From NCBI GenBank assembly GCA_965645245.1, contig OZ287074.1:1674001-1738000 (forward strand): 64,000 nt of DNA, given 5' to 3'. This DNA is from Massalongia carnosa (taxonomy: Eukaryota). Positions 7,406 through 28,282 of this stretch are shown here, piece after piece. A program made the translations under genes and the position numbers. Below the pieces are notes generated by a model. The model was not told where the DNA came from and made no database searches. It saw nothing but the letters and a program-made list of their open reading frames with translations. Within the stretch, counting starts at the first letter, position 1; every line of letters starts with the position of its first letter.

Positions 7406-10272
7406 GATACATGGAACACGTCGTTCGATAGCATAATGGTTATAGTGGATAGATTATCCAAAATGGCTTACTACCTACCATGTCGCAAAACGATGAAGGC
7501 CTCGGACCTCGCGAGCATCTTCCTCGATCGAATAGTTCGTTATCACGGCATTCCAGACGACATAATCACAGACCGAGGAAGCTTATTCACGTCAGAATTT
7601 TGGACCTCGCTTTGTTATCACCTGGTGATAAAACGAAAACTCAGTACCGCTTTTCATCCATCAACCGACGGTCAGACTGAGCGGCAGAACCAGACTCTAG
7701 AAGCCTACCTCCGTGCTTTCTGCAACAGTACACAAGATGATTGGGTAAAACTACTCGCCACCGCAGAATTCGCATACAACAACAGCAAACATACGGCAAC
7801 CGGTTATACACCATTTTTTATAATCACTGGAAGACATCTAAAAATGGAGTTTGCGATAGAAAAACACGAGAAAGAATCTCAATCAGCTACAGAACACGCA
7901 GAGCATCTCAGCAACCTCCGCGAGGAACTGAAATATCGCCTTGCCGAGGCAAACGTTCAGTACTCGACTCATTATAATAAGAAGAGACTTCCAAAAAGTT
8001 ATAATGTAGGAGAAATGGTTTGGTTAAACGCAAAGAACATCAAGACCAAAAAACCATCAAAGAAATTGGAGGCTCGTCGCTACGGACCCTACAAAATAGT
8101 CGAAAGAATAGGAAGACAGGCTTATCGACTAGACCTGCCATCAAGATCTCGAATTCACCCGGTGTTCAACGTCAATCTGATAGAATCGTTTCATCCTCGC
8201 GAGGGAGAGGAAAATCGACCGCCAGCCACAGAACTGCTAGTAGAAGATGCCGGCAACGAGTCATGGGAAGTAGACGGAATTCTAGACTCGCGAAGAACAA
8301 CAAACGGACGAGTGGAGTACTTGGTAAAATGGACGGACTTCGGGATAGAGGACTGCACGTGGGAACCCTTAGACAACCTGACCACATGTCAAGCTACTGT
8401 CCGGGCCTTTCACAAGAAAAATCCCGATAAACCAAACGGAGCTACGATCAGGAAAGAAAGAAACACGAGGAAAGAAGCGGGCGAGAAAAAGACTGCACAC
8501 ATTCAAGAAGAAATCGAGGGCTAAAATGAACACACGAGGGCAACGAGGACGTCGTCATATAAAGGGGGGAGGTAATTGTCAGGGTCTCGACACGGGGACG
8601 AGGATCCTCGCCTCGATCGGGGACAGAACGTCTAGACCCTGACAACGCGTCATCGGAGTTATCAGGATAGGAATTTCTTAGGAGTAGGACATCAGAGAGG
8701 GGTATATATTAGTCGTTTCGGTTCTTATAGATAGCTAGTTGTCAGTTTATTCATTCTATCCTCGCATGCCATAGCCCTATAGGGCTCCCTCCCATCGTCT
8801 GTCACAATAACCTTACAGCGGGCCGGTATGCCAAAAGCGTCCAGTTTCAGAAGATATAGACGTAGGGCCAGGTCCTGATCGGGTTTCTGTCACGATAATA
8901 TAATATACACATCACTACTCCTGTTACCTACAAGCTTTTGATAGCATGCTTTCGTATTCTAACACTTGCTTATCTCCGTTATAAGCCCGGCTTAACCGGG
9001 TAACTCTTTAGTCCTTCCATGATGGGAGCAGGTCCAGATTGGGACTTGTCCAGATTAGCTGTATATAGACGAGCTTGCTCGCATATCTCAATAGACACAC
9101 CCTTATTATGATGATTAACTCAGTTTAAGAATTGTTGAAATAGGTATATGACTATGGCTATATGGCTATGTAATAATAAAGGTATGTATGACCGTGATGT
9201 TAAGGATGAAGAGTTGCTAGGCAGCAATCTTTTCCTATTACTGGTCACCCCCTTCTAAGCGAGGTGATCTTATCTTATCTTGGGACTAAGCCTAATGCGG
9301 CATTGTAAGAGTCAGACCTGGCGATTATCAGACACCAGGCCTAGGGATATGTGACAATGTGAAGACACTAATGATTTGCTATACTAATATACTAAAAGAA
9401 GTATGTAGGTAAAGCGGAAGACTAATCGTTGAAGATTGCATCTCCCTCGAGCAGCCTCCTTATATACCCGGACCGAAGCCCTTGACCCTCTGGGCCCTTG
9501 ATACTGTAACTATCTTGACCGCCCATTACTCCTACCGGATAAGCCGGCTAAACACTCTGCTGACTGCATCGTGGACACTGTGCTGACTGTATCGTGGACA
9601 CTGTGCTGACTGTATCGTACCATCCGCTCACTAATCGTACGAGCATCCTCGTATATCTCGATCGCTCGTACTATACTCTCGGCAGTAGATACCAGCCGCG
9701 TAACGCAGACCAACTGCTTTCCATATGACTAAGCCTAGCCGTAGAACTAAGCCCCGCTTAGTTAGCTTAGCCCTTATTCCTTCTATGCCCTGACAATTGC
9801 CTCCTCTCCTATAGTGCTGGTCCTCCAGCACGTACAGTACTCGAACGCGGAAGGGAGTGTGTAGGGACGTGATAGAAGATGTCGCGTAGATAGCAAGTTT
9901 GTTGTGTAGAAAGCGCGAATACCTGGCGCTTGACGTAGGTAGATGTAAATATCACTAGCTTCTCGGTAATGCTGGGTCGCCGATGCCGCTCCGAGCGCTA
10001 GAAGTAGCGGAGAAGGGGACGATGGCGATTAGCAGCAGAGATCCGAGCTCGGTAACGCTAGCGTTGATGGTTTGTTGATTTAGGTGAAGACGGTGAGGAG
10101 TACGAGATTGTTGTCTCCGAAAGCTCCTCCAGCGAGAGTCTCAAGGAAGAAAAGGGTGATGAGGAGTCGGACGAGGAAGTAGAAGATACTGATGGTGATG
10201 ATGAGGTGCCGGACGAGAAAGCAGAAGGTTCCGATGGTGATGAGATGGCGAATAAGAAGGGTTTCGCTGGAT

Positions 10273-13200
10273 TCAGCGAGTAACATGTAGTTTCTTGATT
10301 CGCCTGCGCTTTGCTTTCGGCTTTGCATCGAAATCCTGCTTCAGTTCTAAGGCTCCATCCAGATCTTTCTCTGGTACCCACTCATCATATTCTTCAGGGT
10401 ATCCTACCCATTTTACCTTATAGAATATTTCCCCTTTCTCAGACCTTCTACCTATAATTTCTTCCACTTCCCATTCCTGTTCATCGTTAATAATTTCAGG
10501 TGGGGGTAGAAACGGTATATGCTCTTGACCATCTCTTCGCTTGTAAGGTTCTAGGTAAGAGACATGAAAGACCGGGTGAATTCTATAAGTCGTAGGAAGA
10601 GCAAGACGATACGCCTGCTTGCCGACTGCTTCTAGAATGCGAAAAGGACCTAAAAACTTATGTGAAAGTTTCTTACTAGGCCTTTTTTGTTTTAGATTCT
10701 TGGCAGATAACATTACCAAGTCCCCTTCATTGAAATCTTTCTCATGTTTCCTGTTGTAGTACTTGGCCTGCGCTTCGGATACGCTTTTCCAGCGTGCCTC
10801 TAAAGAATATCTGAACTCGTGTAATTGCTTTACTCGTTCTTTCGCAGCGGGCACCCTCTCCACAGCGATGTCGTCCCCGACTTCGTAGCGAATCTCCGGG
10901 TTATAGCCGTACATACAATAAAAGGGGCTGCACCCAAGCGTACTTTGATAACTGACTTGGTAGACAAATTGTGCTAGGGGCAATAGTGCCACCCAGTTGG
11001 ATTGATTGTCAGTGCAGTAAACTCTCAAATAGTGTTCAAGGGTCTGGTTTTGTCGTTCGGTTTGGCCATCAGTTTGAGGGTGAAAGACCGTGCTAAGCCG
11101 GCGTTTCGTCTTTAAATGAAAACAAATTTCTGACCAGTACTCACTGGTAAAGACCGACCCTCTATCCGATACTATGCCCTCAGGAGTGCCGAACTGTAAT
11201 ACTACCGATTCAAACAGAATTTCTGCAAGGTCCACTGCATTGATTTTTTTCGTAACCGGGATGTATAGCGCCATTTTGGTATATCTATCCACAATTACTA
11301 GGCACGAGTCATAAACCCGGCCGAAACGCTTGCTAGGTGGAAACCCAGTTATGAAATCCATAGTGATTTCTTTCCAAGGACCGGAAGGACGTGGAAGCGA
11401 TTGCATAACCCCGTAAGATCGGTGCCTAGGCGCCTTCGTCCTTTGACAAATGTCGCAGGATTCCGTGTACTTCTTCACAGTCATGTTAAGTCCTTTCCAA
11501 TAGTATTTGCGGGTAAGCAACTCAGCTGTTTTCTCCGCACCAAAATGACCCGCGAGCTCGTCGTCATGATGACGCCGCAACAGCTCCGCACGAATAGATT
11601 CTTCATCGGGCACGTAAATTCTGCCACGATGATTGAGAAGATCATTGCTATCTATAGTCCAAATTGCTTCGGGGGAGCGACCACCCTTGCGCTTCAAAGA
11701 CTTAGCAACGGTCTCTCGCCTGCTAGACACGAATGCGTCTTTCCCCTGTAGCGCCTTGATGAGTTCAAGCACTGACTTGGAAGCACTTTCCAAAGGCTTT
11801 TCTTCATCTGATAAGGCAACAGCTACAGCCCGGGGAATACATTGCGTCAAGCCGACTTCAAAAGTATCACTCTCTTCGTCAAGAGAAGTAATTGATTTAG
11901 AGGTTTCACCCTCTAAATTCTCCAGGGGTTCAATCCCGGACGAAGCTATCTTTGAGCGAAGATCATACCTAAGTGCGGCAAGCACCGTACGAATCCCCGG
12001 CGTATAACCTACGCATAAGGAATCTATTTTGCTCAGCTTCTTTTGAAGAGTAGGCAACAATCTCGTCACCTCGGTGTTGATGCTCTGATAATCAGGGCGC
12101 CTAGACGGTGCATCGGCAGGATTGGTCTTTCCCGAGCGATGCATGATTACGAAATCATAAGCGGCTAATTTCATAGCCCATCGCGCTTGCCGACCACTCA
12201 ACACCTTAATATTCATAAAACCCCTCAAATTGTTGTGGTCTGTCAGGACCTCAACGGGGTGCAGGCTACCCTCCAGGTAATGCCTCCAGTGTTTAAAACA
12301 CATCACAATGGCCAGCAACTCTTGATCATGGGTTTCATGGTTGCGCTCGGCCGGTATCATCTTCCGCGAGTAGAAAGCGACGGGATGCCATTGCCCATCC
12401 TTCTGCAACTGGGAGATAATGCCAGAGATTCCGAAATCCGATGCATCGGTCTCTAGGCGAATGAGCAGTTCTGGATCGAAGTGAACCAAGATGGGCGCGC
12501 CCTGAAAGGCTTCTTTCAGCTTGCTAAACGCTTCCGCTCCTTCGGCCGTAAGATAAAAAGTACCCCTTTTTATCCCAGCCTGCATGCCTTTCAGCATGTC
12601 AGTCAATGGCCTAGTGATTTGAGAATAATGACGTATGAAACGTCGATAGAAATTGGCGAATCCTAGAAAGACCTGAATGTCTCGAAAGGACTGAAGTGCA
12701 GGCCAATCCCGCACGGTTTCAACCCGGCGTGGATCCATGGAGATACCATCGCTGCTAATGATAAACCCTAGATATTCCACGGCCGGAGCAAAGAACTCGC
12801 ACTTTTTAAGATTTGCATAGAGATCGTGTTTCCTTAGACGACGTAACACCTCTTTAACATGCTCCACATGGCTGGTTCTATCTTTGGAAAATACCAATAT
12901 ATCGTCCAGATAGACTACGCAGAAAACATCCACGATCCCAGATAAAGCTTTATTGATGTAAGCTTGAAAAGTTGCAGGGGCGTTGGCTAATCCAAAAGGC
13001 ATAACCATATACTCGTAGTGTCCGTAACGGGATCGAAATGCCGTCTTCCACTCGTCGCCCTTGCGGATTCGGAGACGATGATAAGCATCTCGCAAATCCA
13101 TTTTGGTAAAATAGGAACACCCGTTTAACTGATCCAGTATCTGCGTGATAAGAGGGAGCGGATGACGATTCTTCTTGGTCACCTTATTCAATCCTCGATA

Positions 13201-14076
13201 GTCAACGCAGAGGCGCAGAGTACCGTCCTTCTTAGGCACAAATAGTATTGGTGCACCTGCAGAACTGGTGGAGTGCCGGATCCAACCCTTCGCCAGGGCG
13301 TCGTCAAGATATTCCCGAAGAGTCTTAAGCTCCGTATTCGATAAGTTGTATAAAGGACCATAAGGTGGATCACCGCCTTCTAAATCGATAGCGTGGTCAC
13401 AGTCCTTGTGCGTAGCTAATTGATTGGCTCTGTCCTTAGAAAAAACATCCTGGAATTCAGCAAATTCCACAGGTATCCCCTGCGTTTCGTTGGTGTTCCG
13501 GCTGTTGTTCTCATCAACAGCGCCAACATTAACAGGTTGTCTTTCGGAAGAAGGTGCAATGGGTTGAGCCACTATAGCATAGAGTGGTGCCCCGGAATCC
13601 AGGGTCTTCGCAAACTGTTTAGGCTTGCACAACTCGAACATATCAGACTGAAAGCCATAACGCCAGCGCTTCGCTCCATAATCGATTACGATACCCAGCT
13701 GTTTGAGACCAGGGAGACCCAACACCAAGTCAGGGCCCTGTTTGTCAATTGCGTAAAACACGCTGGTAAAGGTGCGCTGTCGCTGCCAAGTATCCTCGAG
13801 AGCCATTACTACCTCATAAGCTCCATAGCAGTAAACCTCTTTACCATCCATGAATTGAGGAGCAGGTAGTTCGCTTTCAATAGGTCTAAGATCTGAAGCG
13901 ACGGCGAATCCCTGATTAATCACATTAATCTCGGCTGCTCCATCAAGCAACACTGTCGCCGGGTATTTTTGGACTCCCCTCGTTATAGTCCCCTCAGGAA
14001 TTAGGCTTGGCTCGCTTTCTACTGATCGTTTCCCTCCATCGGCTGGCGAGCTTTCCGTGGAGGTTTGGCTTTTCCC
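10273..14076 (-). CDS. pol: Pol of element B (PR-RT-RH-IN-chromodomain), -1 frame to gag
   Basis: Open from slippery site 14076 to stop; YLDD, ETDASD, HxxGHFG/CDIC, DGQTE, YKVKWVGY..DEWVP. Confidence 0.95.
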   Translation of the reverse strand, partial: GKSQTSTESSPADGGKRSVESEPSLIPEGTITRGVQKYPATVLLDGAAEINVINQGFAVASDLRPIESELPAPQFMDGKEVYCYGAYEVVMALEDTWQRQRTFTSVFYAIDKQGPDLVLGLPGLKQLGIVIDYGAKRWRYGFQSDMFELCKPKQFAKTLDSGAPLYAIVAQPIAPSSERQPVNVGAVDENNSRNTNETQGIPVEFAEFQDVFSKDRANQLATHKDCDHAIDLEGGDPPYGPLYNLSNTELKTLREYLDDALAKGWIRHSTSSAGAPILFVPKKDGTLRLCVDYRGLNKVTKKNRHPLPLITQILDQLNGCSYFTKMDLRDAYHRLRIRKGDEWKTAFRSRYGHYEYMVMPFGLANAPATFQAYINKALSGIVDVFCVVYLDDILVFSKDRTSHVEHVKEVLRRLRKHDLYANLKKCEFFAPAVEYLGFIISSDGISMDPRRVETVRDWPALQSFRDIQVFLGFANFYRRFIRHYSQITRPLTDMLKGMQAGIKRGTFYLTAEGAEAFSKLKEAFQGAPILVHFDPELLIRLETDASDFGISGIISQLQKDGQWHPVAFYSRKMIPAERNHETHDQELLAIVMCFKHWRHYLEGSLHPVEVLTDHNNLRGFMNIKVLSGRQARWAMKLAAYDFVIMHRSGKTNPADAPSRRPDYQSINTEVTRLLPTLQKKLSKIDSLCVGYTPGIRTVLAALRYDLRSKIASSGIEPLENLEGETSKSITSLDEESDTFEVGLTQCIPRAVAVALSDEEKPLESASKSVLELIKALQGKDAFVSSRRETVAKSLKRKGGRSPEAIWTIDSNDLLNHRGRIYVPDEESIRAELLRRHHDDELAGHFGAEKTAELLTRKYYWKGLNMTVKKYTESCDICQRTKAPRHRSYGVMQSLPRPSGPWKEITMDFITGFPPSKRFGRVYDSCLVIVDRYTKMALYIPVTKKINAVDLAEILFESVVLQFGTPEGIVSDRGSVFTSEYWSEICFHLKTKRRLSTVFHPQTDGQTERQNQTLEHYLRVYCTDNQSNWVALLPLAQFVYQVSYQSTLGCSPFYCMYGYNPEIRYEVGDDIAVERVPAAKERVKQLHEFRYSLEARWKSVSEAQAKYYNRKHEKDFNEGDLVMLSAKNLKQKRPSKKLSHKFLGPFRILEAVGKQAYRLALPTTYRIHPVFHVSYLEPYKRRDGQEHIPFLPPPEIINDEQEWEVEEIIGRRSEKGEIFYKVKWVGYPEEYDEWVPEKDLDGALELKQDFDAKPKAKRRRIKKLHVTR

Positions 14077-15260
14077 GACTTTGCGACGGCGTTCACACCG
14101 TGCTTCGGCTCCTTGTCGTCTTTAGGAGGGTTGGGACACTTGTTGGCGTAGTGACCCTGTTCTCCGCAGCGATAACATGTCACCTCGTCGGTACTTTCCT
14201 TTGTCTCAGCATGCTTTCTTTTCTGACCCCTTTTACCGTCTTTCGTAGGTTTTGGTTTGTCAGTGTCCTTTATCTCCTCGTTCCTCTTATCTCTATGTGA
14301 TTTAGTGCGAGGGGGGTGAGAACCATTTGGACGCTCATGCTTCGACGTCGTTAAGACATCGTTTTCTCTTTTCTGATTGTTTTCCAGCCTACTGGCCAGA
14401 GTCACCAGAGCTTCTCTAGTCCTTGGAATATTCTGATAGTTGCCTATAGCTGCTCTAATAGACGGCCGCAACTTAGTAAACAGATGAGTCGCTCTTTGTT
14501 CTTCGGTATAGGAGGGCAACTGGTCCTCGAGGCTACTCAAGTGCGCCTCGAAAGCTCTTACCGTTTGCTTCTCTCCTTGCTTGGCTTCGGCAAATAATTG
14601 GGCCATATGCAGACCTCGATTAACTGGGTCCTCGACAATATTTAACAAGAATTTCAAGTACTCTTCGAAGGTATAATTGTGCATTTCACCGTCTGCCTCA
14701 TATCGATGCCAAGCTTCCTTAGGCTCCCCTTCCAGCGATTGCATTGCGAAAGCGATCTTGGATTCATCATCTGGGAAATCCTCTTTTGCCACGCGAAACG
14801 CCACTCTGCAGTTCCGCTCATAATCCAGATGTTCCTTGACCGTTTTTCCATGATAGGGACTGACTTTCTCGGGTCTAGCAGCGCGTCTCCTGTAAACAAC
14901 AACAGGTACTGACTGGCTACTCGTCATCTCTACATTGTCGTCAGAACGAGGGTTAATGGCTCCTCTCATTACCGGTTCCTTGGATGATCCGGTAGGGTTT
15001 GGAGGTTTCGAAGGCTTTTGAGTTTGTTCTTGCAGTTGCTCAATACTGGCTTTCAAATTCCTCAGACGTACTTCCTTCTTAAGTTCGCTACGCCTGCGCT
15101 CAGCTTGCGCTATCTGTTCGTCCAACGTCAGGGGTTGAATGGGTTCGACTACTTTTTCCATTGGGGTCAGGGCTCCTCTTCCAGGGCCCTCAGAATCCGA
15201 AAGTTCTTCGATCCGCTCCTCCGGCATCATGGTATCAGAGGCAACTTCTTGCGCGGACAT
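14019..15260 (-). CDS. gag: Gag of element B
   Basis: 413 aa, CYRCGEQGHYANKC knuckle. Confidence 0.94.
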   Translation of the reverse strand: MSAQEVASDTMMPEERIEELSDSEGPGRGALTPMEKVVEPIQPLTLDEQIAQAERRRSELKKEVRLRNLKASIEQLQEQTQKPSKPPNPTGSSKEPVMRGAINPRSDDNVEMTSSQSVPVVVYRRRAARPEKVSPYHGKTVKEHLDYERNCRVAFRVAKEDFPDDESKIAFAMQSLEGEPKEAWHRYEADGEMHNYTFEEYLKFLLNIVEDPVNRGLHMAQLFAEAKQGEKQTVRAFEAHLSSLEDQLPSYTEEQRATHLFTKLRPSIRAAIGNYQNIPRTREALVTLASRLENNQKRENDVLTTSKHERPNGSHPPRTKSHRDKRNEEIKDTDKPKPTKDGKRGQKRKHAETKESTDEVTCYRCGEQGHYANKCPNPPKDDKEPKHGVNAVAKSGKAKPPRKARQPMEGNDQ

Positions 15261-16340
15261 GGCGGGACGATAGTGTATAGAAGGTGTATAAATGTGTCAA
15301 CGGATCGTCACTCCTTGAAGGATAGAACGATTAGAATTGTAAGAGTCAGACCTGGCGATTATCAGACACCAGGCCTAGGGATATGTGACAATGTGAAGAC
15401 ACTAATGATTTGCTATACTAATATACTAAAAGAAGTATGTAGGTAAAGCGGAAGACTAATCGTTGAAGATTGCATCTCCCTCGAGCAGCCTCCTTATATA
15501 CCCGGACCGAAGCCCTTGACCCTCTGGGCCCTTGATACTGTAACTATCTTGACCGCCCATTACTCCTACCGGATAAGCCGGCTAAACACTCTGCTGACTG
15601 CATCGTGGACACTGTGCTGACTGTATCGTACCATCCGCTCACTAATCGTACGAGCATCCTCGTATATCTCGATCGCTCGTACTATACTCTCGGCAGTAGA
15701 TACCAGCCGCGTAACGCAGACCAACTGCTTTCCATATGACTAAGCCTAGCCGTAGAACTAAGCCCCGCTTAGTTAGCTTAGCCCTTATTCCTTCTATGCC
15801 CTGACAGGCATCTACGGTTTCCGTAGATGATCTGTCCATCTAGGGGAGCCGTAGGTGCTATGTTCATCGTACTGATAGGTGTTCATTGTGCTGGTAGGAA
15901 TTGGATATTCAACAAGAATTGACTTTATATAATAACTCGGCTATCCAGCGACACAGTTACCTTTACAGTTTCAGACGTTGATTATGCAGTCCTAGTACTT
16001 TCGTTTTGGATGGAACTCCTTTGAATCGAGAACGAAGGCTTTCTCTAGGCACGTTAAATTCTCGCGCAATTGCACTTAGTTTGGCGTTCTTGCGCGAGTT
16101 CAAGGCGTCAATTGCCTTTGAAATACGATTCTCAATTATAGTATAAGCTTCAGCCATGACGGTGGTGGATTATGAATTTTCAAAGGTAGTGGGTAAAAGT
16201 TTGAAGGTTTTGGTTGTATGGCTGGTCCTGATTGTATGGCTAGCACTAAGCGAGGCCGACCGAGCGAAGGTGTGGGGCACGGATATTTTCTTGATATAAT
16301 TAAACTCGATTTTTTTTCAAGACTTTATCAAATTTAATTA

Positions 16341-16770
16341 CACCCGTTTGCAAAATGATGTGTCGAACTTTGAATCCCGAAACTGCGCGGTAAAAAAAAA
16401 TTAATAAGCGACAGAATTGAATCACACATCAGAATTTGATTCAGTAGTTAATGACTCTTCTCTCTTTTATATCATCTTTTGCACTCTGTAGAATAAATGA
16501 TATGTAATGTTTTCATGTAATCTTATTCTTGTTACCTTGTAGTTTTAAAAGCAAACATGAGACTATCATTCAAAATTATTAAACGTGATTATAAAGTTCA
16601 GACTGGAATCGAGTGAAGATGATAATACGATTATAACTACTATTGATATCAGCATCTGACAACTACGTAAAATGAGAGGTAATTGAGAACGATTCAATGA
16701 GATTGCAAAACCTCAACTTGCTACTGATCGGCGCAAGAAACTGAATCAACGACAAATCGATCAACTACTC
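16341..16770 (+). mobile_element. Degenerate left end of a Tc1-type transposon (same family as 31109-33727)
   Basis: TA|cacccgtttgcaaaatg TIR, then decayed KFRLES..QLRKMR..AKPQLA..RRKKLNQRQIDQLL; truncated at LTR 16771. Confidence 0.85.
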
Positions 16771-17362
16771 TGTAAGATTCCAAGGGGCTGTCTTTCCGCC
16801 ACAGGGGAATAGAGGCTTGGCAAAGATAGAGAGCAGACTTCAGAGCGATTGTCTTTGCTAAGTCTCTGTACGAGCTATTGATAAAGCTATAGTAGTTGAA
16901 CACTGCTGTTCCTATCTAGACATAACGAGCGTATATATAGGAGTTCAAGTCCTATTCAAAACAAGGTGCAGGGTACAAGTGATCAGAGGTGATCAGAGGT
17001 GATCAGACTATGCCGACCCCAGCGATGTTCCGTATAGCTAAACCTACCGCGGTAGATTTCCCCTTTAGGCAGACTGATCACGTCTGATCACGTCTGATCA
17101 CTATTGCTCTAAATCAACGTTGATATTTTCATAATATTTAATGTGATTCTCCCGTCCCACTCCTTCCTGTGTTGTCATTATGTTCCCGACTCTCGCAGAT
17201 GCCGATGTCAGAGTAGTCATGCCTGCGATAGTGTTTTAGGCTAGCAGGTGACACTAGGCCTAACTGAGCTCTTGTAACGGTATGCCAAAGGCAGATCGTA
17301 ACACTATACGGAGTACCCCCTAATTAGTGACTATAACTAGCCGTCCTTGCCGGTGAGTTTTT

Positions 17363-17935
17363 ATGGCCATCATGCCCGTCAAGAAAACTATTAAGAAAGT
17401 TAATTCTAGTACTCGTCGTGCTCGTCTCGCCTCTCGTCTCCGACTGAGAGTTGTCGTCATGTCTCTCTGTTTTCGCTGTAAGAGTTTGAACTCCGAATGT
17501 CGTTTGAGCCGTGGTTCCGATCGTTGTGCCAGTTGTGTAAAGGTTGATCATTTCAATTCTGATATGTTCGTCAGTGAACAGACTTGTGTTTTTCTTTTTA
17601 TTTCTTCTTAAAATATTAGTGCTTATTCTTCGTTAGGGGATCGTTTAGATTATGAGCGTAATGCGCTGTTGCGTCAATTAAAGGAAAATCATCGCCGTGT
17701 CCGGGCCGCCTCTCTTCGGTTTGCTCAACTTGCTCGTGAACTTTCTGAAAAGACTCGTGAGTACGAGGATTCTGTGAATGCTCAAGATTCTGCATTGCAC
17801 AAATCCCTCGAACTTGAGGAGTTACTGGAGAAGCTGCCAAGACGGGAGGTCGAGCTCGTGACTCATGAACTTTCGTCGATCGAAGCACAAGAAGCGGCTT
17901 CGTCGTTCGATTTCGACATCCGTGGCGGTTATTAA
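17363..17935 (+). CDS. Zn-cluster-like (Cx2Cx6Cx8Cx2C) plus coiled-coil protein, ~173 aa, one intron, antisense inside element I
   Basis: GT..AG intron 17586-17636 joins ORF 17363 and ORF 17669 in frame (SEQT-W-DRLDYER); CFRC..C..CASC; sixth Cys position reads TCT (Ser). Confidence 0.7.
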
Positions 17936-18729
17936 CACTGCTTCTCCTCCTGGGTTTTCCTTCGTTGTTTCGCTAGCGGAATCTTCGATTGTCGCTGCTA
18001 GCCATGCTTCGTCCTCACTGATGTCGGGTACTTCATCTAGCCAATATGATTCTTTCCAGGCTTCGAACTAGGCTGACCTTGATTGATCTCTTTTCCTGAT
18101 GATTCTGATATTGCTATGATAAGATCTCCAATGTCCTTGTTTGTCATTCGTTCTATAAACCTTTTCCATGATTCCATCATTTTCTTAGTTTCTTCTGATC
18201 GTGCTGCTAACTCATGAAACACTTTCCTTAACTGTTTTCATCTTTCAGTTGATGAGTCGCTCGGTGATTCGACAGACTCTGTATATTTCTGGGCATGTTT
18301 TATTCATTTCGCTAGGTATTCCATTAGTTTTTCGTGACTCAGTTGGGTTCCGATTTGTTGCTTTTCGCTTCTGGTGAATGAGTTCTCTTCTTGCTAGTTT
18401 CCCTTTACTTCGGGTAGTTCGATATTCTGTAGTTCCCTTAGCCTCTGCAAGAACTTATCTTCTGAGTTCGTCTCTTCTTCCTGAGATTACGACTCGACTG
18501 CCGTGTCCTGTCCTTCCTGTGCGGATAGTCTCGTCGGATCACGAAGCCCTTTTCACTGATCGTCGGTGTGGGGGCATCCTATCTCGAGGTCAAATTCGTT
18601 TCCTCCCATATCGCAATGTAGTCCTTGGGCCTTTCCGTTTGTATCGTAGACGGTGATTATTGGCATGAGTTCTTCATGTATGGATTCGAATTTCTCTATC
18701 CTCATATCCCGCAGTCCTGTAGCGCGTAT

Positions 18730-21659
18730 TCATACAATTCGAACGGTTTTAACTCTTTCGACTAACGCTTTTCCGAGTTGCGCTTTTTGTATTCCTTGAT
18801 GCACTTTGACTGTGATAGACTGTTCTTCTTCGTCTGTGATCGCTTTAGCCCGTAATTCTTTGATAGATGCGTCCAATCTTTCTCTTCTTAATTCGTTCCA
18901 TTCTTGTCTACCGATCTTTCCTAACCCGATGCTTATATCCCATTGATTGTCGTCACTTGTTCTCATTTGATGTCTTTCGTATTCTTGTCCTCTAATGGTA
19001 ACTTTTAGCTTTTCTTCGAACGCCTCGATACCTAGTTTTCTGACTCCTTTTTCCGATATGGTTCCTAGTAAAACCCTGGTCTGATTTGTACCTCGATTTC
19101 TCGGTTGTCTCATTTGTCGTATTTGGCTTCCCCTGTTACTATGATAGGATCGTTTGTTTCGCTGGCGTACTGCATTATTTTATTTTTCCTGGGGTATCAT
19201 CCTGATCCGTCCTTTGAGGATATATGTACCTGGCAGTCGTCTTCGTAGCATGCGGTCCAATGAAGGTTTGCGTGTTTATCTTGATCTGACCTTTCTTCCT
19301 GTGTCGCATTGATATTCTCTTTTTGCTTGCAGTATCTGGCTATATGTCCTTGTTTTCCGCAATTGTAACAGGTTCTTTTCTGCCATTCTTCCTGGGTCGC
19401 GTCTATTTTCAAGAAGTCTCCTCGATCTTGTTTCTTGTATGGTTTTCAAGGTACGATTTGTCTTCTTCTTTCCTGTCGGCGTTCGTAGTGCCGTTCATCT
19501 ACTCTTATGACTGCTTCTATCATTTCTTGTAGTGAATCTGATCTTTCTCCTCTGACTATGTCGTCTTTGATTTCTTCCTTCAATCCTTGATAGAATGTTC
19601 TCGCTAGTGCCGTATCGTCCCATCCTGTTGTGATTGTTCATTGTTGGAATTCTACTGCATAGCTGGCCGCGGACCCTAACTGTCTCAACTCCAGCATTCT
19701 TCTTTCTGCTGTACGTTCCTCGTCGACGTCTCCGAACGAGATGCCTAGGGACAGTCCCCCCGTGTAAATCTTTACTAGTAAACAGCCATTTTACTACTCA
19801 TCCAGGCTGCATACAAGCTAGCAGTTACACTACGTATTAATAATGTTGCTGTTACTGACTAAGTGTATTCAACACCTACAAATCTACCGATTGCGATAAC
19901 TTCAACTCCAAAAACTCGTCAGCCAATTGCGATACATCATCTTTTCTAGGCTTCATAGTTTTAGCTACCTTTCTCATCGCCGTTTCCTTTCTCGCTTGAG
20001 CCCTAGCCTGTTTGACTGATTTCTCGACTCTTTGCTGAGATCCCAACTCCAACTGAGCCTTTGATTCTTCGCCACACCCCGAGACCTTCGCGTTGTTGCA
20101 GAGGAAGTATTCTAGGAATAATTTGACCGGCGCGCACGTTTTGGCTAAGACTATAAAGAGATAGAGGCGGCGCTGCCTGAGGTAGGATTAAGTTATATAG
20201 CAATAAGCGACGAGAAACGAAAGGTCGGTGTTAATGATTCCAACCAAAACGAATAAAGGCAGGTTCAATATATTAATATTGAACTTTGCATCCGTTTCTA
20301 ATAGAAACCCACCCCACGAAACGTCGAGCTAGCCTAATTTGCTCCGCATTGTAAAAAAAAAAAGTTCTATCACCCGTCTCTCACGCACATTATTCTTAAC
20401 AATATATTTTTCCTTACACCGTACATGAAAACCTCTGTCTTTCAACGAGCCCAAGGCAAAAAGAAGCTCTTCTTCAGGCATGTAAGCTCCCTCCGAATGA
20501 GCGAGATTATAATAATCGCTCCTCGACAGACGGAGTCCTTGGATTCCTAATATTTTCGCTGCTTGGCCATATTGGGTTGACGATGCACGGAGACTCTTCC
20601 CTTGATCAAGGGCATCTGTTCGATCAGGGCCCCTACTACGATGTTCTCTGAATGCAAAGGGATCAGTGGCCATGTCATGATTGTGCTCGGAGTTAGTAAC
20701 TATTAGTCTCCATGCATTGTCTTTATTTTTTTTGAGACGGAGGCGATAAGGGCACTCATTGAACGAAACTTTGGTATTGGCTCCCACCCGGTCTTCCTCC
20801 TCTACTTTTCTAGTGTTTCTAACTCTTTTGTGATGGCGTGTGTAGTCTAATACGCTTAAATGGTTTTTCTTATGATAGTCTTGAAGACGAGTCTTTGCCT
20901 TCTTTCAAGACGAAAGTAACTCATTCTCTAGCGGAGGGAGGAGGTGAGGTGAGGGTAGAAGGGCAATGGCATGTTGCTTTCGTGCATTCAAAGAAGTGGG
21001 ATCGAACTCCATCGCGATGAGGAGTAGTAAAATATATAATATGAGGTATAGCATAAGTGGAAGTAAAGATTTAGAGAGGGCAAAGGGTTAGGACAAGGGC
21101 AAGGGCAAATGATAAGTGAGGGTAAGAGTATGCTTTATCAGACCGAGTAGGATAATTATAAGTAGCAATAACAGGTCATACATTTAAACCGAAAAGAGTT
21201 TAATGTGCTGTTGGCAGTTGCATTACTAGCTTGTACGCACCCTGGATGAGCAGTGAAATGATTTACACAGGGGGTGGGGACGGTCGGGGGGGACTGTCCC
21301 TAAGCATCTCGGTCTCCGATAGATCGTAACTCGTTTTCGAATCTTTCATAGTTCTGGAATACTTTTCTTGTGACGTCTTCCCACTCGGCCCGGTCATTTT
21401 CTAAGTAATCTCTGACTAGAGGGTTCATTCATCTGACAGCCTTGTCTCGCATGAATGATAAGGCGTATAATATCCTCTCCTGGTCGTCTGGAAATGATCC
21501 TCTGTTGAATCGCATGTATAATTTCAGCTGAATCAGGAAGTCCTTGATCTTTCCTGGCTCTTCCTTGAATAGATCTGATGTGGATAGTTTGAGTTGTTTG
21601 ACTGTAACTTCCCTTTCTTCGTAGAAGGATTCCTGAATGATGCCTGCCATACTGGACAT
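18730..21659 (-). pseudogene. gag: gag(-protease-like) remnant of element I, split by a MULE
   Basis: DFLIQLKLY..ILYALSFMRDKA capsid-like segment; CYNCGKQGHIARYC knuckle; many stops and frameshifts. Confidence 0.8.
19737..21311 (-). mobile_element. Internally deleted Mutator-like element (MULE)
   Basis: TIRs cgagatgcctagggacagtcccccc / gggggactgtccctaagcatctcg, 9-bp TSD GTCTCCGA(A/T); FAR1-like CPYRL..W..HNH fragment at 20329-20787. Confidence 0.88.
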
Positions 21660-22709
21660 GTTCTCGGTGGTGAAATGTTGCTCTGTAAGGAGTGTTCAAA
21701 GTGTAAGATTCCAAGGGACTGTCTTTCCGCCACAGGGGAATGGGCGCTTGGCAAAGATGAAGAGCAGACTTCAGAGCGATTATCTTTGATAAGACTCTGT
21801 ACGAGCTATTGATAAGCTATAGTAGTTGAACATTGCTGTTCCTATCTAGACATAACGAGCGTATATATAGGAGTTCAAGTCCTATCCCAAACAAGATGCA
21901 GACTATGCCGACCGCAGCGATGTCCCATAACGTTATCGCTAAATCTACCGCGGTAGATTTTCCCTTTAGGCAGACTGATCACGTCTGATCACGTCTGATC
22001 ACTGTTCCTCTAAATCAACGCTGATGTGTTCATAATATCCAATGAGATTCTCCCGTCCCACTCCTTCCTGTATTGTCATCGCTTGTCCTTCGTTCCCGAC
22101 TCCTGTGCTCGCAGTTACCGATGTCATGCCTGCGATAGCGTGTTAGGCTAGCAGGCGGCACTATGCCTAACTGAGCTCTTGTTACGGTATATGTCATGAA
22201 ATCGAACCAACCCGATCCAGAATCAATCCCGCAGATGAATCTGACTAAGCTCCCGTTCCTCTATTCAGCTTAGTCAGAATCTCATTAACTAAATCGAGTT
22301 TAGACCCCTCTCAACGGCTTCAGGTCAAAGCTGTACCATCACCATCAAAGCGTACCAACGACAGGAGAACCTCATCTCCACCTTTTATCGTCAAACACCT
22401 CGTCAAACCTTCGTGCCGTACGTCTCCTAATAGGGGGAGATGAACACTGATCGAATCTTCATGCAAAGGGGTTCGAGACAAATATAAAAGGAAGGACAAG
22501 TTAATTAGATTGTTGACTCCTTGTCCGACGTCTTGTATAGCAATCCATCACCTAGCTATAGCCTTATTAATAAAGACATCTTGATCACCCAATCCAATTC
22601 CTAGGAACATTAGTTCAATCCCCTGCCCAGTCCTTGACATTACGTCGGACCTACATCGAAAGGTGCCTTTCATAGCACTAGCCCCTGTCCCCCCTCATAT
22701 TCCACCATC

Positions 22710-23903
22710 ATGTCTTCGTCTTCAGAAGAGATGACCGTCCCCCAAAATCCTCTCATCGACGAGAACGTGAAGTTGTTTCAAAACCAGTTCCAAACCAATC
22801 CTGAAGCATTCGTCGCGGAAATACGACGACTTCAAGACGAGGTGGCCCGGTTGCAGGCCGCCCCAGCTCCCGACCCCCCTATACCCACTCCAGCATCAAC
22901 CTCGTCTCCCTCGTCCGTTCCGGCAATGGACCCTCAGATAGCTGCCCTCCTGCAGCTCCTTTTGACCCGGAATTCCGAGTCCAAAACCGATCTTCGTTCC
23001 GAAAAACTTCCCGACATCTCCGAGTACGATGGAGATGAAGCCAAGTTGGACTCCTGGGAACAGAGCCTGATTCAACGGATGCACGTTAATCATGATCGAT
23101 ACTCCACCGATGCCTCCAAGATTGCATACGCGGAGAATCGGCTCACCATCGGGAAACGAGCTCACAACCTTATGAATGCGTATCGAGTGGATGGCATTTG
23201 TAGACTCACCACCTTCTCCGAATGGCGTTCTGCTCTTCGCCTAGCCTGCGGCAACCCCTTCGAACAAGAGGATGCCCGTAAGTACCTTCGAGAAACCCTC
23301 AAGCAGGGCTCTCTGAGTTTCGAAGAGTACAACACTCTCTTCTCTCAGAAAAAAGACCGATCCAGAATGGAAGACGCTTCGTTGATTGATGCCATGAAGG
23401 CAAACATCAACTACTCCGTTCAAACAGCGGCCGTCCACTACCGAGTCCCCGGCACCAATCTGGAGCCAATCACCTTCGACGAGCACGTCGCAATGTGGTT
23501 AAGCACGGACCGGAAAATCCGTCAGATCCGTCATCTGGCACCCAAGGCCACGACTCCGGCCACATCAGCTCCCGCCAATCGAAGAAACGGCACCAACCTT
23601 CCTGCTGCCCCTTTCCCCCGCACTGTCGTCACGGGCACGGTCACCCCATTGATCCCAACCCCCGCCTTCCCCCCAGCTGGAGACCCCATGGACCTAAGTC
23701 AGGCCATGGCGGCTGTCAAAGGTCAGTCGTTGAAAACCGAGGGAGTAAGGAAGATCTGCGAGAATTGGAACCTGTGCTTCTATTGCAAATTGCAACACCT
23801 CGGGTCGGCCTCCGACTGTCCAAATAAGCCTACCAAACGCCTTCGCAACATGGAAGTCGTCTCGACCCTCACTCCCGAGACTGACGACTCGGGAAACGTC
23901 TAG
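22710..23903 (+). CDS. gag: Gag of element C
   Basis: 397 aa, GDPMDL motif and CFYCKLQH..C knuckle-like end. Confidence 0.93.
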   Translation: MSSSSEEMTVPQNPLIDENVKLFQNQFQTNPEAFVAEIRRLQDEVARLQAAPAPDPPIPTPASTSSPSSVPAMDPQIAALLQLLLTRNSESKTDLRSEKLPDISEYDGDEAKLDSWEQSLIQRMHVNHDRYSTDASKIAYAENRLTIGKRAHNLMNAYRVDGICRLTTFSEWRSALRLACGNPFEQEDARKYLRETLKQGSLSFEEYNTLFSQKKDRSRMEDASLIDAMKANINYSVQTAAVHYRVPGTNLEPITFDEHVAMWLSTDRKIRQIRHLAPKATTPATSAPANRRNGTNLPAAPFPRTVVTGTVTPLIPTPAFPPAGDPMDLSQAMAAVKGQSLKTEGVRKICENWNLCFYCKLQHLGSASDCPNKPTKRLRNMEVVSTLTPETDDSGNV

Positions 23904-23928
23904 ACTCTGCGCATCGTCGCGCGCAGAG
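23891..23928 (+). promoter_or_regulatory. -1 ribosomal frameshift signal
   Basis: G GGA AAC in gag phase, 7-nt spacer, 8-bp stem ctctgcgc/gcgcagag; same signal at 50208 in D. Confidence 0.85.
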
Positions 23929-26900
23929 CCCTATTTTAATTTCTTCTTGTCTGTTAGCCAACTCGTTTTCTCCCCCCCTTCAATCAAACACTCGTTTTTC
24001 CGCAGCCTCCGCTTTGGAGCTGTTTGAAACCGAAGAAGCGTTTCGAGATAGCCACCTAGTGGTATCATGTATCTTACGTTTAGGTAGATCTCGAATTCAA
24101 GCTCTCAATCTGATTGATTGTGGTGCATCTGGCTATGCATTCATTGACAAGAAGTTTGCGCAAACTCACCAAATCCCCCTTCATCCCCTCAAATACGCCC
24201 GACGCCTTGAAGGCTTCGACGGTCAGCCGGCTCTGACTGGAAATATCACTCATGTGGCCGAGGTAATCATGGACTTAAACGGACATGTAGAAAGATTATT
24301 CCTTTTCGTAACAGGACTGAAAACCTACCCCATCGTCCTGGGACACCCGTGGTTGCGACGACATCAAGCTCTCGCTGATTTCGAGTCCAACTCTCTCTCC
24401 CTGTCTTCCTCTTTCTGCCTGGCTCATTGTAGCCCTCATCCAGTCAAGGTGAAGGCCTACACGGGCGAGAAATTCCTATCTCCTGCGGAAAGTCAGGAAG
24501 TATGGGAATCGGAAAACTACTCGTCCAATAGTCAAATCCTGTCCGAAAAACCTGTCCTGTCCGATAAAACCACGCCGCGCGATAGTAAGACAACTTCTCT
24601 CGAAAATCAGGACATCAGTCGTATCGAAAAAGCGATTGAACAGGGCGACTCACCGAAAATCCGATATCGAAGTCCCTCTTCGTATCGCACCTCCACTCAG
24701 CGACATGCTGCCCAGCAGAATCGCAATCCTCCTGTTTTGGACGTCTGTGAAATCGGCGCCCTCAACTTCAACTATCTCGGACGAAAAAAGAGTCACGAGA
24801 TGTTTGCTCTCTCCTTGAAAGAAATCGATCACTTTCTCGGCCTGACTCAACCTGAACCTAAGCCTGAACCCAAACCCGAATCTCGCCTTCGTCAAGAGAC
24901 TGACTGGGCACACTCGAAACCAACCTACCAACCCAACCCCCGGTCCAGCCCTAGTGAAAAGAAATATCACTTAGCCCTGTTCCGTATGAACCAGGCTCTG
25001 ACACAGTTATGTTCAGTGACCGAACCCGAACCTCAACCCTTGACACTGCAATCATCAGTGACCGCCGAAGAACTGAACGCTTATCGTGAGCGAAAGAACG
25101 TCGACCCAGCCCCCCTTCTACCCAAACAGTATCACGACTTTCTGGATGTCTTCTCCAAAAAAGAATCGGACGTCCTGCCCGAACACCGACCCTACGACCA
25201 TGCCATAAAGCTAAAAGAAGGCTCTCCAATCCCGAATCAAGCTCTTTATGGCATGAGTCGAACCGAAATCGAAGAACTCCGACGCTACCTTGATGAGAAC
25301 CTGTCGAAAGGCTTCATCCGAGCTAGTAAATCCCCCGCTGCCTCCCCAGTCATGTTCGTAAAGAAGCCAGGAGGAGGACTTCGCTTCTGTGTCGACTATC
25401 GAGGCCTCAATGCCATCACGATTAAGAATCGGTATCCGCTTCCCCTGATCACCGAAACCCTGAATCGCCTGAGTCGGGCTAAGATATTCACCAAGCTGGA
25501 CATTATTTCAGCGTTCAATCGGCTCCGCATCAAGGAAGGAGATGAAGAACTCACCGCATTCAGAACCCGTTTTGGCCTCTTCGAATCCCTGGTCCTACCA
25601 TTCGGCCTCTGTAACGGCCCCGCCTCCTTTCAACACTTCATCAATGATACTCTTCGAGAGTATCTCGACGACTTTTGCACGGCCTATCTAGATGACATTC
25701 TCATCTACAGCGAAATTGAAAGCGAGCATGAAATCCACGTCAAACGTATCCTCATCAAGCTGAGAGAAGCCGGGCTGCAAGTAGACATCACCAAATGCAA
25801 ATTTCATGTCACAGAAGTTGCCTATCTCGGACTAATCGTAACCACCGAGGGAATCAAAATGGACCCCGCTAAAATCGAAACAGTAACTCATTGGCCAATA
25901 CCGATCAATATGAAAGATGTACAAAGCTTTCTGGGATTTGCTAACTTCTATAGACGATTCGTATACGGCTTTAGTAAGATAGCCGGCCCACTGACGAATC
26001 TAACCAAAAAGGAGGTCAGCTTTCAATGGACTGACAAATGTCAACAGGCATTCGAAACTCTAAAAAAAGCTTTCACCTCGGAACTAATACTGATGCATTT
26101 CGATCCCGATCGTCCTATCATCGTGGAAACCGATGCTTCGGACTACGTCTCTGGTGGTATCCTTTCTCAGTATGACAACGAGAACGTGCTTCGCCCCATC
26201 GCATACTTCTCCAAGAAACACAACCCGGCCGAATGCAATTATGAGATCTATGACAAGGAACTCATGGCCATCGTCCGATGCTTCGAAGAATGGAGACCGG
26301 AATTGGAAGGTTCTGCTCACCCCATCAGCGTTATCTCAGATCATAAGAATTTGGAATACTTCGCTTCAACCAAACAACTCAGTCGTCGTCAAGCTCGCTG
26401 GTCCGAATTCTTATCCCGATTTGACTTTAAAATAGTCTATCGACCCGGAAAAGCTGGTGGAAAACCAGATGCACTGACTCGTCGCTCAGGAGACCTCCCT
26501 AAAGAGGGGGATGAAACTGATGAAAGACATAAACATCAGCATCAAACCATCCTGAAAACTCATAACCTGGACGACGAAGTGGCGAAAAGTTTCTTATCCA
26601 CGATTATCCTAGCCCCCGCGTTCATCGAACAGGATCCCGAGTCCGTTGAACATGATCACGAGTTCATTGAACCTGAACCACAGCTGGATCAGCCTGCCGA
26701 GCAAACCAATCCTGGCCAAGACCCGACCGACGTCCCAACTCAGCTGTTATGGGAACAAGCTCTGGAACAGGATCAATTCTCTCTGAAAGTTCTAGACATG
26801 CTTCGCAATAATGTCAGATATCATAACGGCATTCAGCTAGCCGAATGTGAAGATAAAGAAGGGATTCTTTATTTTCGAAACCGTCGATACGTCCCCAATT

Positions 26901-28282
26901 CGGATCGGCTCCGTCTCCGTCTCATTCAACAGGCACACGACAGCGTAGCAGGTGGCCATCCCGGTCGTTCCAAATGCTACGAACTAATGAATCGATCATA
27001 CTGGTGGCCCAGTATGCATCAAACCGTCAAACGATTCATTCGTAACTGTCACACCTGTAGACGATCCAAACCATCCCGCCAACGATACCAAGGATGGCTA
27101 CGCCCTCTGTCCCCACCCGAACGTCGATGGCGTGACGTTTCCATGGACTACGTAGGTCCGCTGCCTCCGAGCACCTTCATGGGTATAACCTATCGTTATA
27201 TCCTCGTCTTCATCGATCGCCTTTCCAAGATGCGACATTTCGTCCCCACCACCTCCATGGAGGTAGAAGAGGCTGCTAATTCCTTCTACCAAAATGTATG
27301 GAAATTACACGGTCTCCCAGACGCCTTGATTTCGGATCGAGGCACCCAATTCACCTCCGATTTCTGGGACATCATGTGTAAACGGCTTAGAATTGATGCT
27401 AGGCTATCAACCAGTTTTCATCCCGAGACAGATGGCCAAACCGAGAGGGCTAATGCAACCATGGAGCACTATCTTCGGGCATACGTCAATTACATGCAAG
27501 ATGACTGGGCCCAGTACTTACCCGGTGCCGAATTCTCCAGCAATAACACCGACTCCTCCAGCATTCTCGCCTCTCCCTTCCTGGCTAATTATGGACAACA
27601 CCCCAGGGTAGGATTCGAACCCGAAGGGCCCCTTCCGCAAGACCTGACCGCCCAGGGAATCGCTAACCTGATCGCCGCCAATCGATTCGTAGACAAGATG
27701 CGAGACGTAGACACTCACCTACGAGAAGAGATGTTGATCGCGCAGGCCTCATACGAATCTTCCGCCAATGAGAACCGCCGTCCCTGTCCTCGTTATCTTG
27801 TAGGAGACATGGTATGGCTGAACACCCGAAATATCCAGACAGCCCGTCCGGCAGCCAAACTGGACGATCGAAATGTCGGTCCTTACCGAGTCTGTAAGGT
27901 GTTCGCCAACCCTCTTGTTGTTCAACTGGAACTCCCCGACACGGTTAAAATTCATCCGGTCTTTCATGTAAATCTGCTACAACACGACGCAGACGACCCC
28001 CTCCCAGGACAAATTCCCGAGCTTCGCGACCCAATAATAGCCGAAGATGGACAGCGAGAATGGTATGTCAACAGCATTCTGAACTCGAAACTGGACAGAC
28101 GTTATCAACCTCCGCTTCTCAAGTATTTCGTCAACTGGGAAGGACATACCCCCACCTGGGAGCCATTTCACCTACTAACCAACTGTCAACAAGCTCTGGA
28201 CGAATTCCACGAAGCCTATCCTGGTGCATCCGGCCCACATCTCACCCCCTGTTCCATTCCTCGATGTCGCTGTCATGAATAA
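23891..28282 (+). CDS. pol: Pol of element C (PR-RT-RH-IN-chromodomain)
   Basis: Open in -1 frame from GGGAAAC; LIDCGA, YLDD, ETDASD, GGHPG/CHTC, DGQTE, YFVNWEG..TWEP. Confidence 0.96.
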   Translation, partial: GKRLDSAHRRAQSPILISSCLLANSFSPPLQSNTRFSAASALELFETEEAFRDSHLVVSCILRLGRSRIQALNLIDCGASGYAFIDKKFAQTHQIPLHPLKYARRLEGFDGQPALTGNITHVAEVIMDLNGHVERLFLFVTGLKTYPIVLGHPWLRRHQALADFESNSLSLSSSFCLAHCSPHPVKVKAYTGEKFLSPAESQEVWESENYSSNSQILSEKPVLSDKTTPRDSKTTSLENQDISRIEKAIEQGDSPKIRYRSPSSYRTSTQRHAAQQNRNPPVLDVCEIGALNFNYLGRKKSHEMFALSLKEIDHFLGLTQPEPKPEPKPESRLRQETDWAHSKPTYQPNPRSSPSEKKYHLALFRMNQALTQLCSVTEPEPQPLTLQSSVTAEELNAYRERKNVDPAPLLPKQYHDFLDVFSKKESDVLPEHRPYDHAIKLKEGSPIPNQALYGMSRTEIEELRRYLDENLSKGFIRASKSPAASPVMFVKKPGGGLRFCVDYRGLNAITIKNRYPLPLITETLNRLSRAKIFTKLDIISAFNRLRIKEGDEELTAFRTRFGLFESLVLPFGLCNGPASFQHFINDTLREYLDDFCTAYLDDILIYSEIESEHEIHVKRILIKLREAGLQVDITKCKFHVTEVAYLGLIVTTEGIKMDPAKIETVTHWPIPINMKDVQSFLGFANFYRRFVYGFSKIAGPLTNLTKKEVSFQWTDKCQQAFETLKKAFTSELILMHFDPDRPIIVETDASDYVSGGILSQYDNENVLRPIAYFSKKHNPAECNYEIYDKELMAIVRCFEEWRPELEGSAHPISVISDHKNLEYFASTKQLSRRQARWSEFLSRFDFKIVYRPGKAGGKPDALTRRSGDLPKEGDETDERHKHQHQTILKTHNLDDEVAKSFLSTIILAPAFIEQDPESVEHDHEFIEPEPQLDQPAEQTNPGQDPTDVPTQLLWEQALEQDQFSLKVLDMLRNNVRYHNGIQLAECEDKEGILYFRNRRYVPNSDRLRLRLIQQAHDSVAGGHPGRSKCYELMNRSYWWPSMHQTVKRFIRNCHTCRRSKPSRQRYQGWLRPLSPPERRWRDVSMDYVGPLPPSTFMGITYRYILVFIDRLSKMRHFVPTTSMEVEEAANSFYQNVWKLHGLPDALISDRGTQFTSDFWDIMCKRLRIDARLSTSFHPETDGQTERANATMEHYLRAYVNYMQDDWAQYLPGAEFSSNNTDSSSILASPFLANYGQHPRVGFEPEGPLPQDLTAQGIANLIAANRFVDKMRDVDTHLREEMLIAQASYESSANENRRPCPRYLVGDMVWLNTRNIQTARPAAKLDDRNVGPYRVCKVFANPLVVQLELPDTVKIHPVFHVNLLQHDADDPLPGQIPELRDPIIAEDGQREWYVNSILNSKLDRRYQPPLLKYFVNWEGHTPTWEPFHLLTNCQQALDEFHEAYPGASGPHLTPCSIPRCRCHE

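Follow-up and report, generated by a model that had tools for sequence, protein, structure and literature searches.

Whether an open reading frame (ORF) that runs against gag at the 3' end of a long terminal repeat (LTR) element is a working accessory gene, the relic of one, or a piece of host sequence captured once, is the question raised by the locus at 17363-17935 on the plus strand of the window (the whole stretch of DNA analysed here, 64,000 nucleotides long, to whose first letter all coordinates refer). The sequence-only reading of this locus had seen in it an intron-containing gene for a GAL4-type zinc cluster and coiled coil, kept open and perhaps serving as a dedicated accessory gene of a class of non-autonomous retroelements, and had considered it a candidate for an undescribed system.

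A gag-only LTR element on the minus strand

The ORF lies in a minus-strand LTR element with the following recognisable parts.

16771..17303, minus strand: 3' LTR, with TG...CA ends, a direct repeat of 21702-22191
18556..19179, minus strand: second sense-strand ORF remnant, after gag (149 + 58 codons, one stop)
19200..19737, minus strand: gag, 3' half, containing a CCHC knuckle (26.6 bits with zf-CCHC against a cutoff of 20.8, E 5.8e-6)
19736..21311, unstranded: non-autonomous MULE-like DNA transposon with imperfect terminal inverted repeats of ~80 nt
21319..21695, minus strand: 5' half of gag (sub-threshold DUF4939/Ty3_capsid matches), in one frame with 19200-19737
21702..22191, with a remainder of ~22 nt at 28778-~28799, minus strand: 5' LTR, the other direct repeat, split near its outer end

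The end of the left LTR was set by its match with 28778-~28799, which lies past a younger gypsy element (22192-28772, target duplication GTATA) that splits the right LTR, the old LTR resuming at 28778. Identity between the two LTRs is no more than 88% (over 16771-17288, 424 matches in 481 ungapped columns, plus 50 gap columns), which marks the insertion as old. Once a nested insert of ~1.58 kb is excised, gag is a single minus-strand frame of 305 codons with 3 in-frame stops, and from these stops together with the LTR identity it follows that the whole element is old and decaying evenly. No target-site duplication, primer-binding site or polypurine tract was recognised by eye at the LTR edges, where the short signals of the old element may have been eroded by age.

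The element had been described as an LTR pair with gag but without reverse transcriptase (RT), and this description holds. Ten minus-strand ORF translations gave no Pfam match to protease, RT, RNase H or integrase at E <= 1, and tblastn with the three Pol proteins of the window returned nothing better than E 0.96, with the proviso that weak pol remnants could be masked by decay. The sense ORF remnant that follows gag (18556-19179) matches no Pfam family, and a word search of the protein collection recovered only the remnant itself. The nearest gag in the window is 46% identical over 39 residues, and no autonomous partner was identified there. As the element is gag-only, RT-less and on the minus strand, the ORF of interest is antisense to it and stands at its 3' end.

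The left LTR contains a dyad block (16979-17101) made of three copies of GTGATCAGAG, a perfect 12-bp palindrome, CTACCGCGGTAG, and then three copies of CTGATCACGT, the two tandem arrays being mutual reverse complements. Its counterpart in the other LTR lies at 21945-22002; the first array is absent from this right LTR, and the palindrome, which is centred on CCGCGG, is present in both. This core resembles the everted CGG sites of zinc-cluster factors, and is a candidate site for such a protein.

The transposon nested in gag is flanked by an 8-bp target duplication, GTCTCCGA, at 19728-19735 and 21312-19. Contig joints skip 19738-21318 in all four runs X1, X3, X4 and X5, with a joint of 1581 nt in each of them and one of 1585 nt in X1, X3 and X4. 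Depth over the insert is ~50-300 times that of its flanks in the four runs, and the insert is among the most abundant repeats of the organism. It carries an ORF at 20329-20904 (minus strand) with sub-threshold matches to FAR1/AFT DNA-binding families, and a tblastn match relates it to the MULE transposase at 34931-36037.

Other mobile elements surround the locus. The younger element at 22192-28772, inserted into the old 5' LTR at a distance of ~22 nt from its outer end, belongs to Ty3/gypsy and looks intact, with a gag of 397 aa, a pol of 1337 aa and LTRs that agree at 98% over 475 nt; a sister copy with a gag of equal length lies at ~49027-54536. A third gypsy element, at 9302-15806 on the minus strand, has LTRs that are 99-100% identical, a gag of 413 aa and a pol of at least 1192 aa, and shows no notable antisense ORF in the 477-nt gap between its pol and 3' LTR. 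The remainder of the window is a transposon island beside host genes (1668-8524, 34931-36037, 47294-48514, 55361-62372), containing a broken gypsy pol (RVT_1, RNase H, integrase, chromodomain), a MULE transposase and a DDE_1 (pogo-like) transposase; the host genes that come after the island have SacI-homology and Tti2 domains.

The antisense ORF in the window

Four parts of the ORF can be told apart, the last of them only by comparison with other copies.

17363..17585, plus strand: exon 1 as read, with a basic N-terminus and a five-cysteine cluster, Ser standing at the place of the sixth Cys
17586..17636, plus strand: putative 51-nt GT-AG intron, in frame, 59% T, with one TAA at 17609-17611
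17637..17935, plus strand: exon 2 as read, a heptad-rich helical region with an early end from a T-run length difference at 17911-17913
17912..18086, plus strand: C-terminal part of the ancestral ORF, rich in Ser, which in the window falls into the next frame, with TAG at 18069-18071 and the shared stop at 18084-18086

As had been proposed, two plus-strand ORFs that share one frame (17363-17611 and 17612-17935) are joined by excision of the 51-nt GT...AG stretch into a coding sequence of 522 nt and 173 aa. The start described as ~60 bp inside the 3' LTR, opposite gag, was likewise recovered: 60 nt separate the end of that LTR from the ATG at 17363, on the strand opposite gag, so that the ORF is placed after the last sense ORF and before the 3' LTR. 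The cysteine motif of the window copy reads C-x2-C-x6-C-x8-C-x2-C-x7-S, again as stated. Its first five cysteines occur in this spacing once in the six frames of the window and in none of 100 shuffles, and the motif is therefore not due to chance. The heptad-rich helix that had been noted after the cluster is also present: exon 2 opens with 42 residues in which 7 of the 12 a/d positions are hydrophobic, a value reached by 74 of 2000 shuffles. No second copy exists inside the window, where tblastn with the spliced product returned only the locus itself, the 10 other rows having E >= 1.2.

A second copy and other relatives

An exhaustive phmmer search with exon 2 against 1,835,955,588 representative proteins (E <= 1e-3) yielded 4 proteins, named P0001 to P0004 here. 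The window locus accounts for P0001 (contig of 2.44 Mb), whereas P0002 and P0003 lie together on another contig (1.63 Mb) and constitute a second copy of the ORF; each of the three is a single-member cluster. P0004 is a protein of 1121 aa, 44 residues of which were matched, and looks spurious. The known loci of the antisense ORF among these 1.84 billion proteins are consequently two, the window locus and one other, which gives no support to the proposal of a dedicated accessory gene of a retroelement class. Word-based protein searches added no further locus: exon 1 found nothing among longer proteins, and P0002, at near lengths, recovered no locus beyond its own and that of the window. JGI metagenome contigs were also scanned, with no relative found. 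In the ESM Atlas, the cysteine part leads to Ascomycota clusters at 0.85-0.87, which are leads only.

P0002 starts at a Met that matches 17459, has all six cysteines in Zn2Cys6 spacing, meets no stop in the 51 nt and terminates at ~17765, where the window has Tyr. P0003 restarts at 17774 and follows window frame +2 to 17911, then frame +3 (aligned from 17880) to 18083. Together they share the frame of the window over 17459-18083, with identities of 80/101, 37/46 and 47/68. On the strength of these alignments with the window frames, the ancestral ORF is taken to extend from ~17459 (perhaps 17363) to the shared stop at 18084-18086, with six cysteines and a tail rich in Ser.

The contigs of the second copy cease to match the window left of ~17421-17428 and right of ~18210, and the second copy may lie in another context. 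Diverged contigs of the gag 5' end and of the mid region (80-89% identity) also exist, and it is equally possible that the second copy is part of a second whole element. Window copy and second copy are each at about single-copy depth in the runs of one organism; by contig depth, the ORF region is at ~2-3 times single-copy level, against ~10 times for the LTR.

Yet another copy, ~97% identical to that of the window, is found in a run labelled lichen metagenome, with 15 differing letters in 566 nt and, over 848 nt, 15 differing letters and one gap. It reads G at three places: at 17559, where Cys is encoded; at 17590; and at 18070, where the TAG is absent.

Decay of the window copy

The ORF had been said to stay open while gag is riddled with stops, and this contrast does not stand. 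As counted above, gag has 3 stops in 305 codons, and the ORF of the window has suffered at least as visibly. The sixth Cys has become Ser, position 17559 being C in the window and G in other copies; the T run at 17911-17913 differs by one base in length, with a frameshift near 17912 as the result; the TAG at 18069-18071 results from position 18070, which is A in the window and G in other copies; and the TAA at 17609-17611 lies inside the putative intron. Lesions come at similar rates in the two, about one per 240 nt for the antisense ORF and about one per 300 nt for gag. The second copy has a nonsense codon of its own (P0002, ~17765), both known loci being disabled. Several of the window lesions must be recent, as the ~97% identical copy is free of them, and the same copy, with its sixth Cys kept and no TAG, means that 'dead everywhere' does not follow from the state of the window.

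Between the window and P0002, residues differ at 12/42 positions in the cysteine part, 6/18 in the putative intron and 3/41 at the start of exon 2. In all, 21 of 101 codons differ in amino acid, while the matching contig has, over 356 nt, 39 differing bases and 17 gap letters; by a rough estimate, the differences between the two copies would fit approximately neutral drift since their separation. Over 17100-21700, copy differences in X1 are mostly transitions (A>G 60, T>C 53, C>T 46, G>A 40), with 3-12 transversions per class, and the window is more often A/T where other copies have G/C. This transition bias hints at RIP-like or methylation-driven decay.

The cysteine cluster

The full pattern C-x2-C-x6-C-x5-12-C-x2-C-x6-8-C is present in P0002, and the window copy has Ser at its sixth place. 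Factors of GAL4 type carry a dimerisation coil after their cysteine cluster, and the second copy is like these Zn(II)2Cys6 proteins in its C-x2-C-x6-C-x8-C-x2-C-x7-C spacing and in the helical heptad region that follows. To this extent the GAL4-type layout that had been assigned to the ORF stands. It is not backed by family assignment: the pieces of the window copy score 12.6 and 14.4 bits and P0002 12.4 bits with Pfam Zn_clus (PF00172), below its gathering threshold of 21, and the alignment covers only model positions 17-38, about half of the model. Pfam gave no significant match of the ORF to any zinc-finger family. Basic residues between Cys2 and Cys3 are few, as judged by eye against the family consensus.

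An AlphaFold2 model of P0002, made from the single sequence and without zinc, shows the cluster as a helix plus two-strand hairpin (pLDDT 72-75) and residues 31-100 as one long helix (pLDDT 95-98). Neither Foldseek nor VIA-align found a match for the cysteine part alone (42 aa), and with the model of 101 aa the fold searches gave generic long-helix matches (Z ~7). The PDB sequence search returned weak coiled-coil matches with E >= 0.04. The module appears to be a zinc-binding-type cysteine cluster with GAL4-type spacing, and a reading as a four-cysteine zinc knuckle (C-x2-C...C-x2-C) is equally possible. Given that there is no significant family or fold match, a putative DNA-binding role for the product is drawn from the spacing alone.

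Is the 51-nt stretch an intron?

The putative intron consists of 59% T, compared with 27-34% in the exons, and the most T-rich 51-nt stretch of the ORF starts at 17584; GT and AG thereby stand at the edges of an island of distinct composition. At position +5 of the putative 5' splice site (17590), other copies have a G that was lost in the window lineage. The Tti2 gene at 60755-62372, from which the splice-site habits of the genome might have been learned, gave no consistent intron by eye. The sequence-only reading had looked to other copies for conservation of the cysteines and of the intron. P0002 bears out the former, having all six, and not the latter, as the 51 nt are open in it and the GT is not kept: it has Tyr for the window's Cys at the 5' edge, so that the GT at 17586 is probably AT there.

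On balance, a real ancestral intron seems to us moderately probable, and its survival through reverse transcription by virtue of its antisense orientation, as had been proposed, is plausible. Splicing is not required for the layout of the protein, as the 51 nt are in frame and open in the second copy. An ancestor without intron, in which the 51 nt encoded a hydrophobic linker from cluster to helix and in which the window has since acquired a nonsense mutation, is hence a possibility to be considered, if a rather unlikely one. It would account for a stretch that is a multiple of three, has a single stop, is of equal length between copies and lacks its 5' GT in P0002, and the AlphaFold2 model, which is weak on this point because it is based on a single sequence, includes the stretch in the long helix. 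Against it, the T content rises exactly between GT and AG, and an 18-residue hydrophobic stretch would be odd between a zinc module and a zipper. Openness of the 51 nt in P0002 says little in this respect, as 17 codons of such composition are stop-free by chance about half the time, by our estimate.

Origin of the antisense ORF

The reading we favour, with a probability of roughly 0.55, is that the ORF is the pseudogenised remnant of an antisense additional ORF borne by the element, decaying neutrally in an old, low-copy, gag-only (TR-GAG-like) element of Ty3/gypsy type, whose host is probably a fungus and perhaps one associated with lichens. When the element was last copied, the ORF would have been intact, with ~210-240 codons, and would have been transcribed antisense to gag from the side of the 3' LTR. 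The ancestral gene would have encoded a six-cysteine zinc-binding module, then, probably after a short intron, a leucine-zipper-like helix with an Asn at one core position, and a Ser-rich tail. Its product might have been a small protein that bound nucleic acid as a dimer and regulated how the element itself was expressed, a role that would parallel proposals made for plant antisense aORFs, Boty brtn and HTLV-1 HBZ. Since insertion, all parts of the element, the ORF included, would have drifted neutrally, leaving the window copy inactive today. That such an ORF was carried by an element family would be a generalisation from one element with visible context and from two known loci.

A different origin, which we consider unlikely, is that a fragment of a host gene of zinc-cluster type (exon 1, intron, exon-2 start and tail) was captured once, or recombined into the 3' end of the element, the second copy being its donor or a remnant, and that the ORF never served the element. 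The very low copy number of the ORF relative to the LTR and the loss of similarity of the second copy's contigs outside ~17421-18210 would suit such an event, a kept intron fits capture at the DNA level, and extra ORFs seen in one or a few copies are usually ascribed to gene capture, or transduction, in the passages cited (PMC7264820, PMC11963269). The presumed donor (P0002/P0003) has a disabling stop of its own, however; no other paralogue or orthologue came to light, the four phmmer proteins being three from two loci and one that looks spurious; and the diverged contigs of gag and mid region make a second whole element an equally possible home for the second copy. The sequence-only reading's own proposal, a live, spliced, antisense mini transcription factor of GAL4 type (173 aa) under selection in a non-autonomous retroelement, can appeal to a spliced frame that is open for 173 codons, to the first 41 residues of exon 2 with their mere 3 differences from the second copy, and to the T-rich, intron-like island with GT..AG edges. 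We nevertheless regard it as very improbable: the window lacks a sixth Cys that is kept elsewhere, a frameshift shortens the ORF, a TAG stands in the tail, the +5 G of the 5' splice site was lost in the window lineage, the LTRs have diverged and gag is broken, and Zn_clus stays below its Pfam threshold. Less credible still, to the point of being nearly negligible, is the view that there never was a gene and that the T-rich antisense strand of a decayed retroelement is open here by chance. Frames of 118, 102 and 81 codons are open on the minus strand as well, and ORFs of ~100 codons are common in 64 kb, but the window shows the five-cysteine pattern only once and none of the shuffles has it, and the frame is kept for ~200 codons, with six canonically spaced cysteines, in a copy that is ~11-14% diverged.

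The favoured reading, a neutrally decaying remnant of an element-borne ORF, could be carried further. In a bolder version, which is speculative and in our opinion doubtful, the ancestor was an active gag-only fungal element with a spliced antisense gene for a zinc-cluster/leucine-zipper dimer, expressed from the 3' LTR and acting on the dyad of the LTR as a counterpart of HBZ, and more intact, expressed copies may survive in relatives, the ~97% identical copy from the lichen metagenome run, with its sixth Cys and no TAG, being a case in point. For the window copy itself, a dead relic, the annotation 'degenerate LTR element with antisense ORF remnant' suffices.

Comparison with known systems

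Antisense extra ORFs between pol and the 3' LTR have been described in maize Grande, rice RIRE2, Silene Retand and bean PvRetro13, and in fungi in the form of the Boty gene brtn of Botrytis and Sclerotinia, according to the passages cited (PMC7264820, PMC8365987, PMC4227169). The idea of an undescribed system finds no support in view of these plant and fungal cases (in the cited parts of PMC7264820 and PMC8365987). The same sources, as far as the passages go, present the proteins of known antisense ORFs as orphan or poorly characterised, some of them nuclear or predicted to bind DNA, with a regulatory role proposed (PMC7264820, PMC11963269, PMC8365987), and report that the antisense TRP28 ORFs of Retand, predicted to bind DNA, are present in 97% of clusters (PMC11963269).

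The window ORF is like these aORF-3R (brtn of Boty/BcGypsy1, gene23 of Grande, and those of RIRE2 and of Retand, TRP28), as they appear in the passages cited, in adjoining the 3' LTR and running opposite to gag. It differs from them in that its host element has gag only and no pol, and in its Zn2Cys6-spaced cluster, its zipper-like helix and a possible intron; the known copies here are two, both decayed, against classic cases that most members of a family retain, again as described in those passages. With brtn and gene23, the likeness is one of position and orientation, by their descriptions, and not of sequence, and for TRP28 (PF04195) the Pfam scan of the window ORF gave no row at E <= 10. 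Among the literature matches listed, no paper joins a binuclear cluster with an antisense or captured ORF of an LTR retrotransposon.

The element as a whole is best compared with TR-GAG, gag-only non-autonomous LTR retrotransposons of plants (PMC13570524, in the passages cited). It has two direct LTRs around a gag ORF with a CCHC knuckle, and no detectable protease, RT, RNase H or integrase, as TR-GAG elements are described there. It differs from those plant elements in belonging to a probable fungus and in having a further ~1.9 kb of orphan sequence, which includes the second sense ORF remnant and the antisense ORF.

A more distant parallel, by analogy only, is found among retroviruses. HBZ of HTLV-1 is a bZIP protein made from a spliced antisense transcript that starts in the 3' LTR, and the window ORF recalls it in its antisense position at the 3' LTR end, its putative splice, and a dimerising helix beside a nucleic-acid-binding module. 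The two have no relation of sequence or family: the window ORF has no bZIP match in Pfam, and has a cysteine cluster where HBZ has a basic region. The host here is a retrotransposon without env or pol, and splicing and transcription of its ORF are putative. The cited passages (PMC11963269, PMC7264820) mention HBZ too.

If the ORF was indeed borne by the element, it would be the second fungal antisense accessory gene in LTR retrotransposons, after brtn of Boty, and the first of them to show a recognisable zinc-cluster-like module; its host element has lost pol. Accessory regulators would then not be limited to autonomous elements, to retroviruses or to plants.
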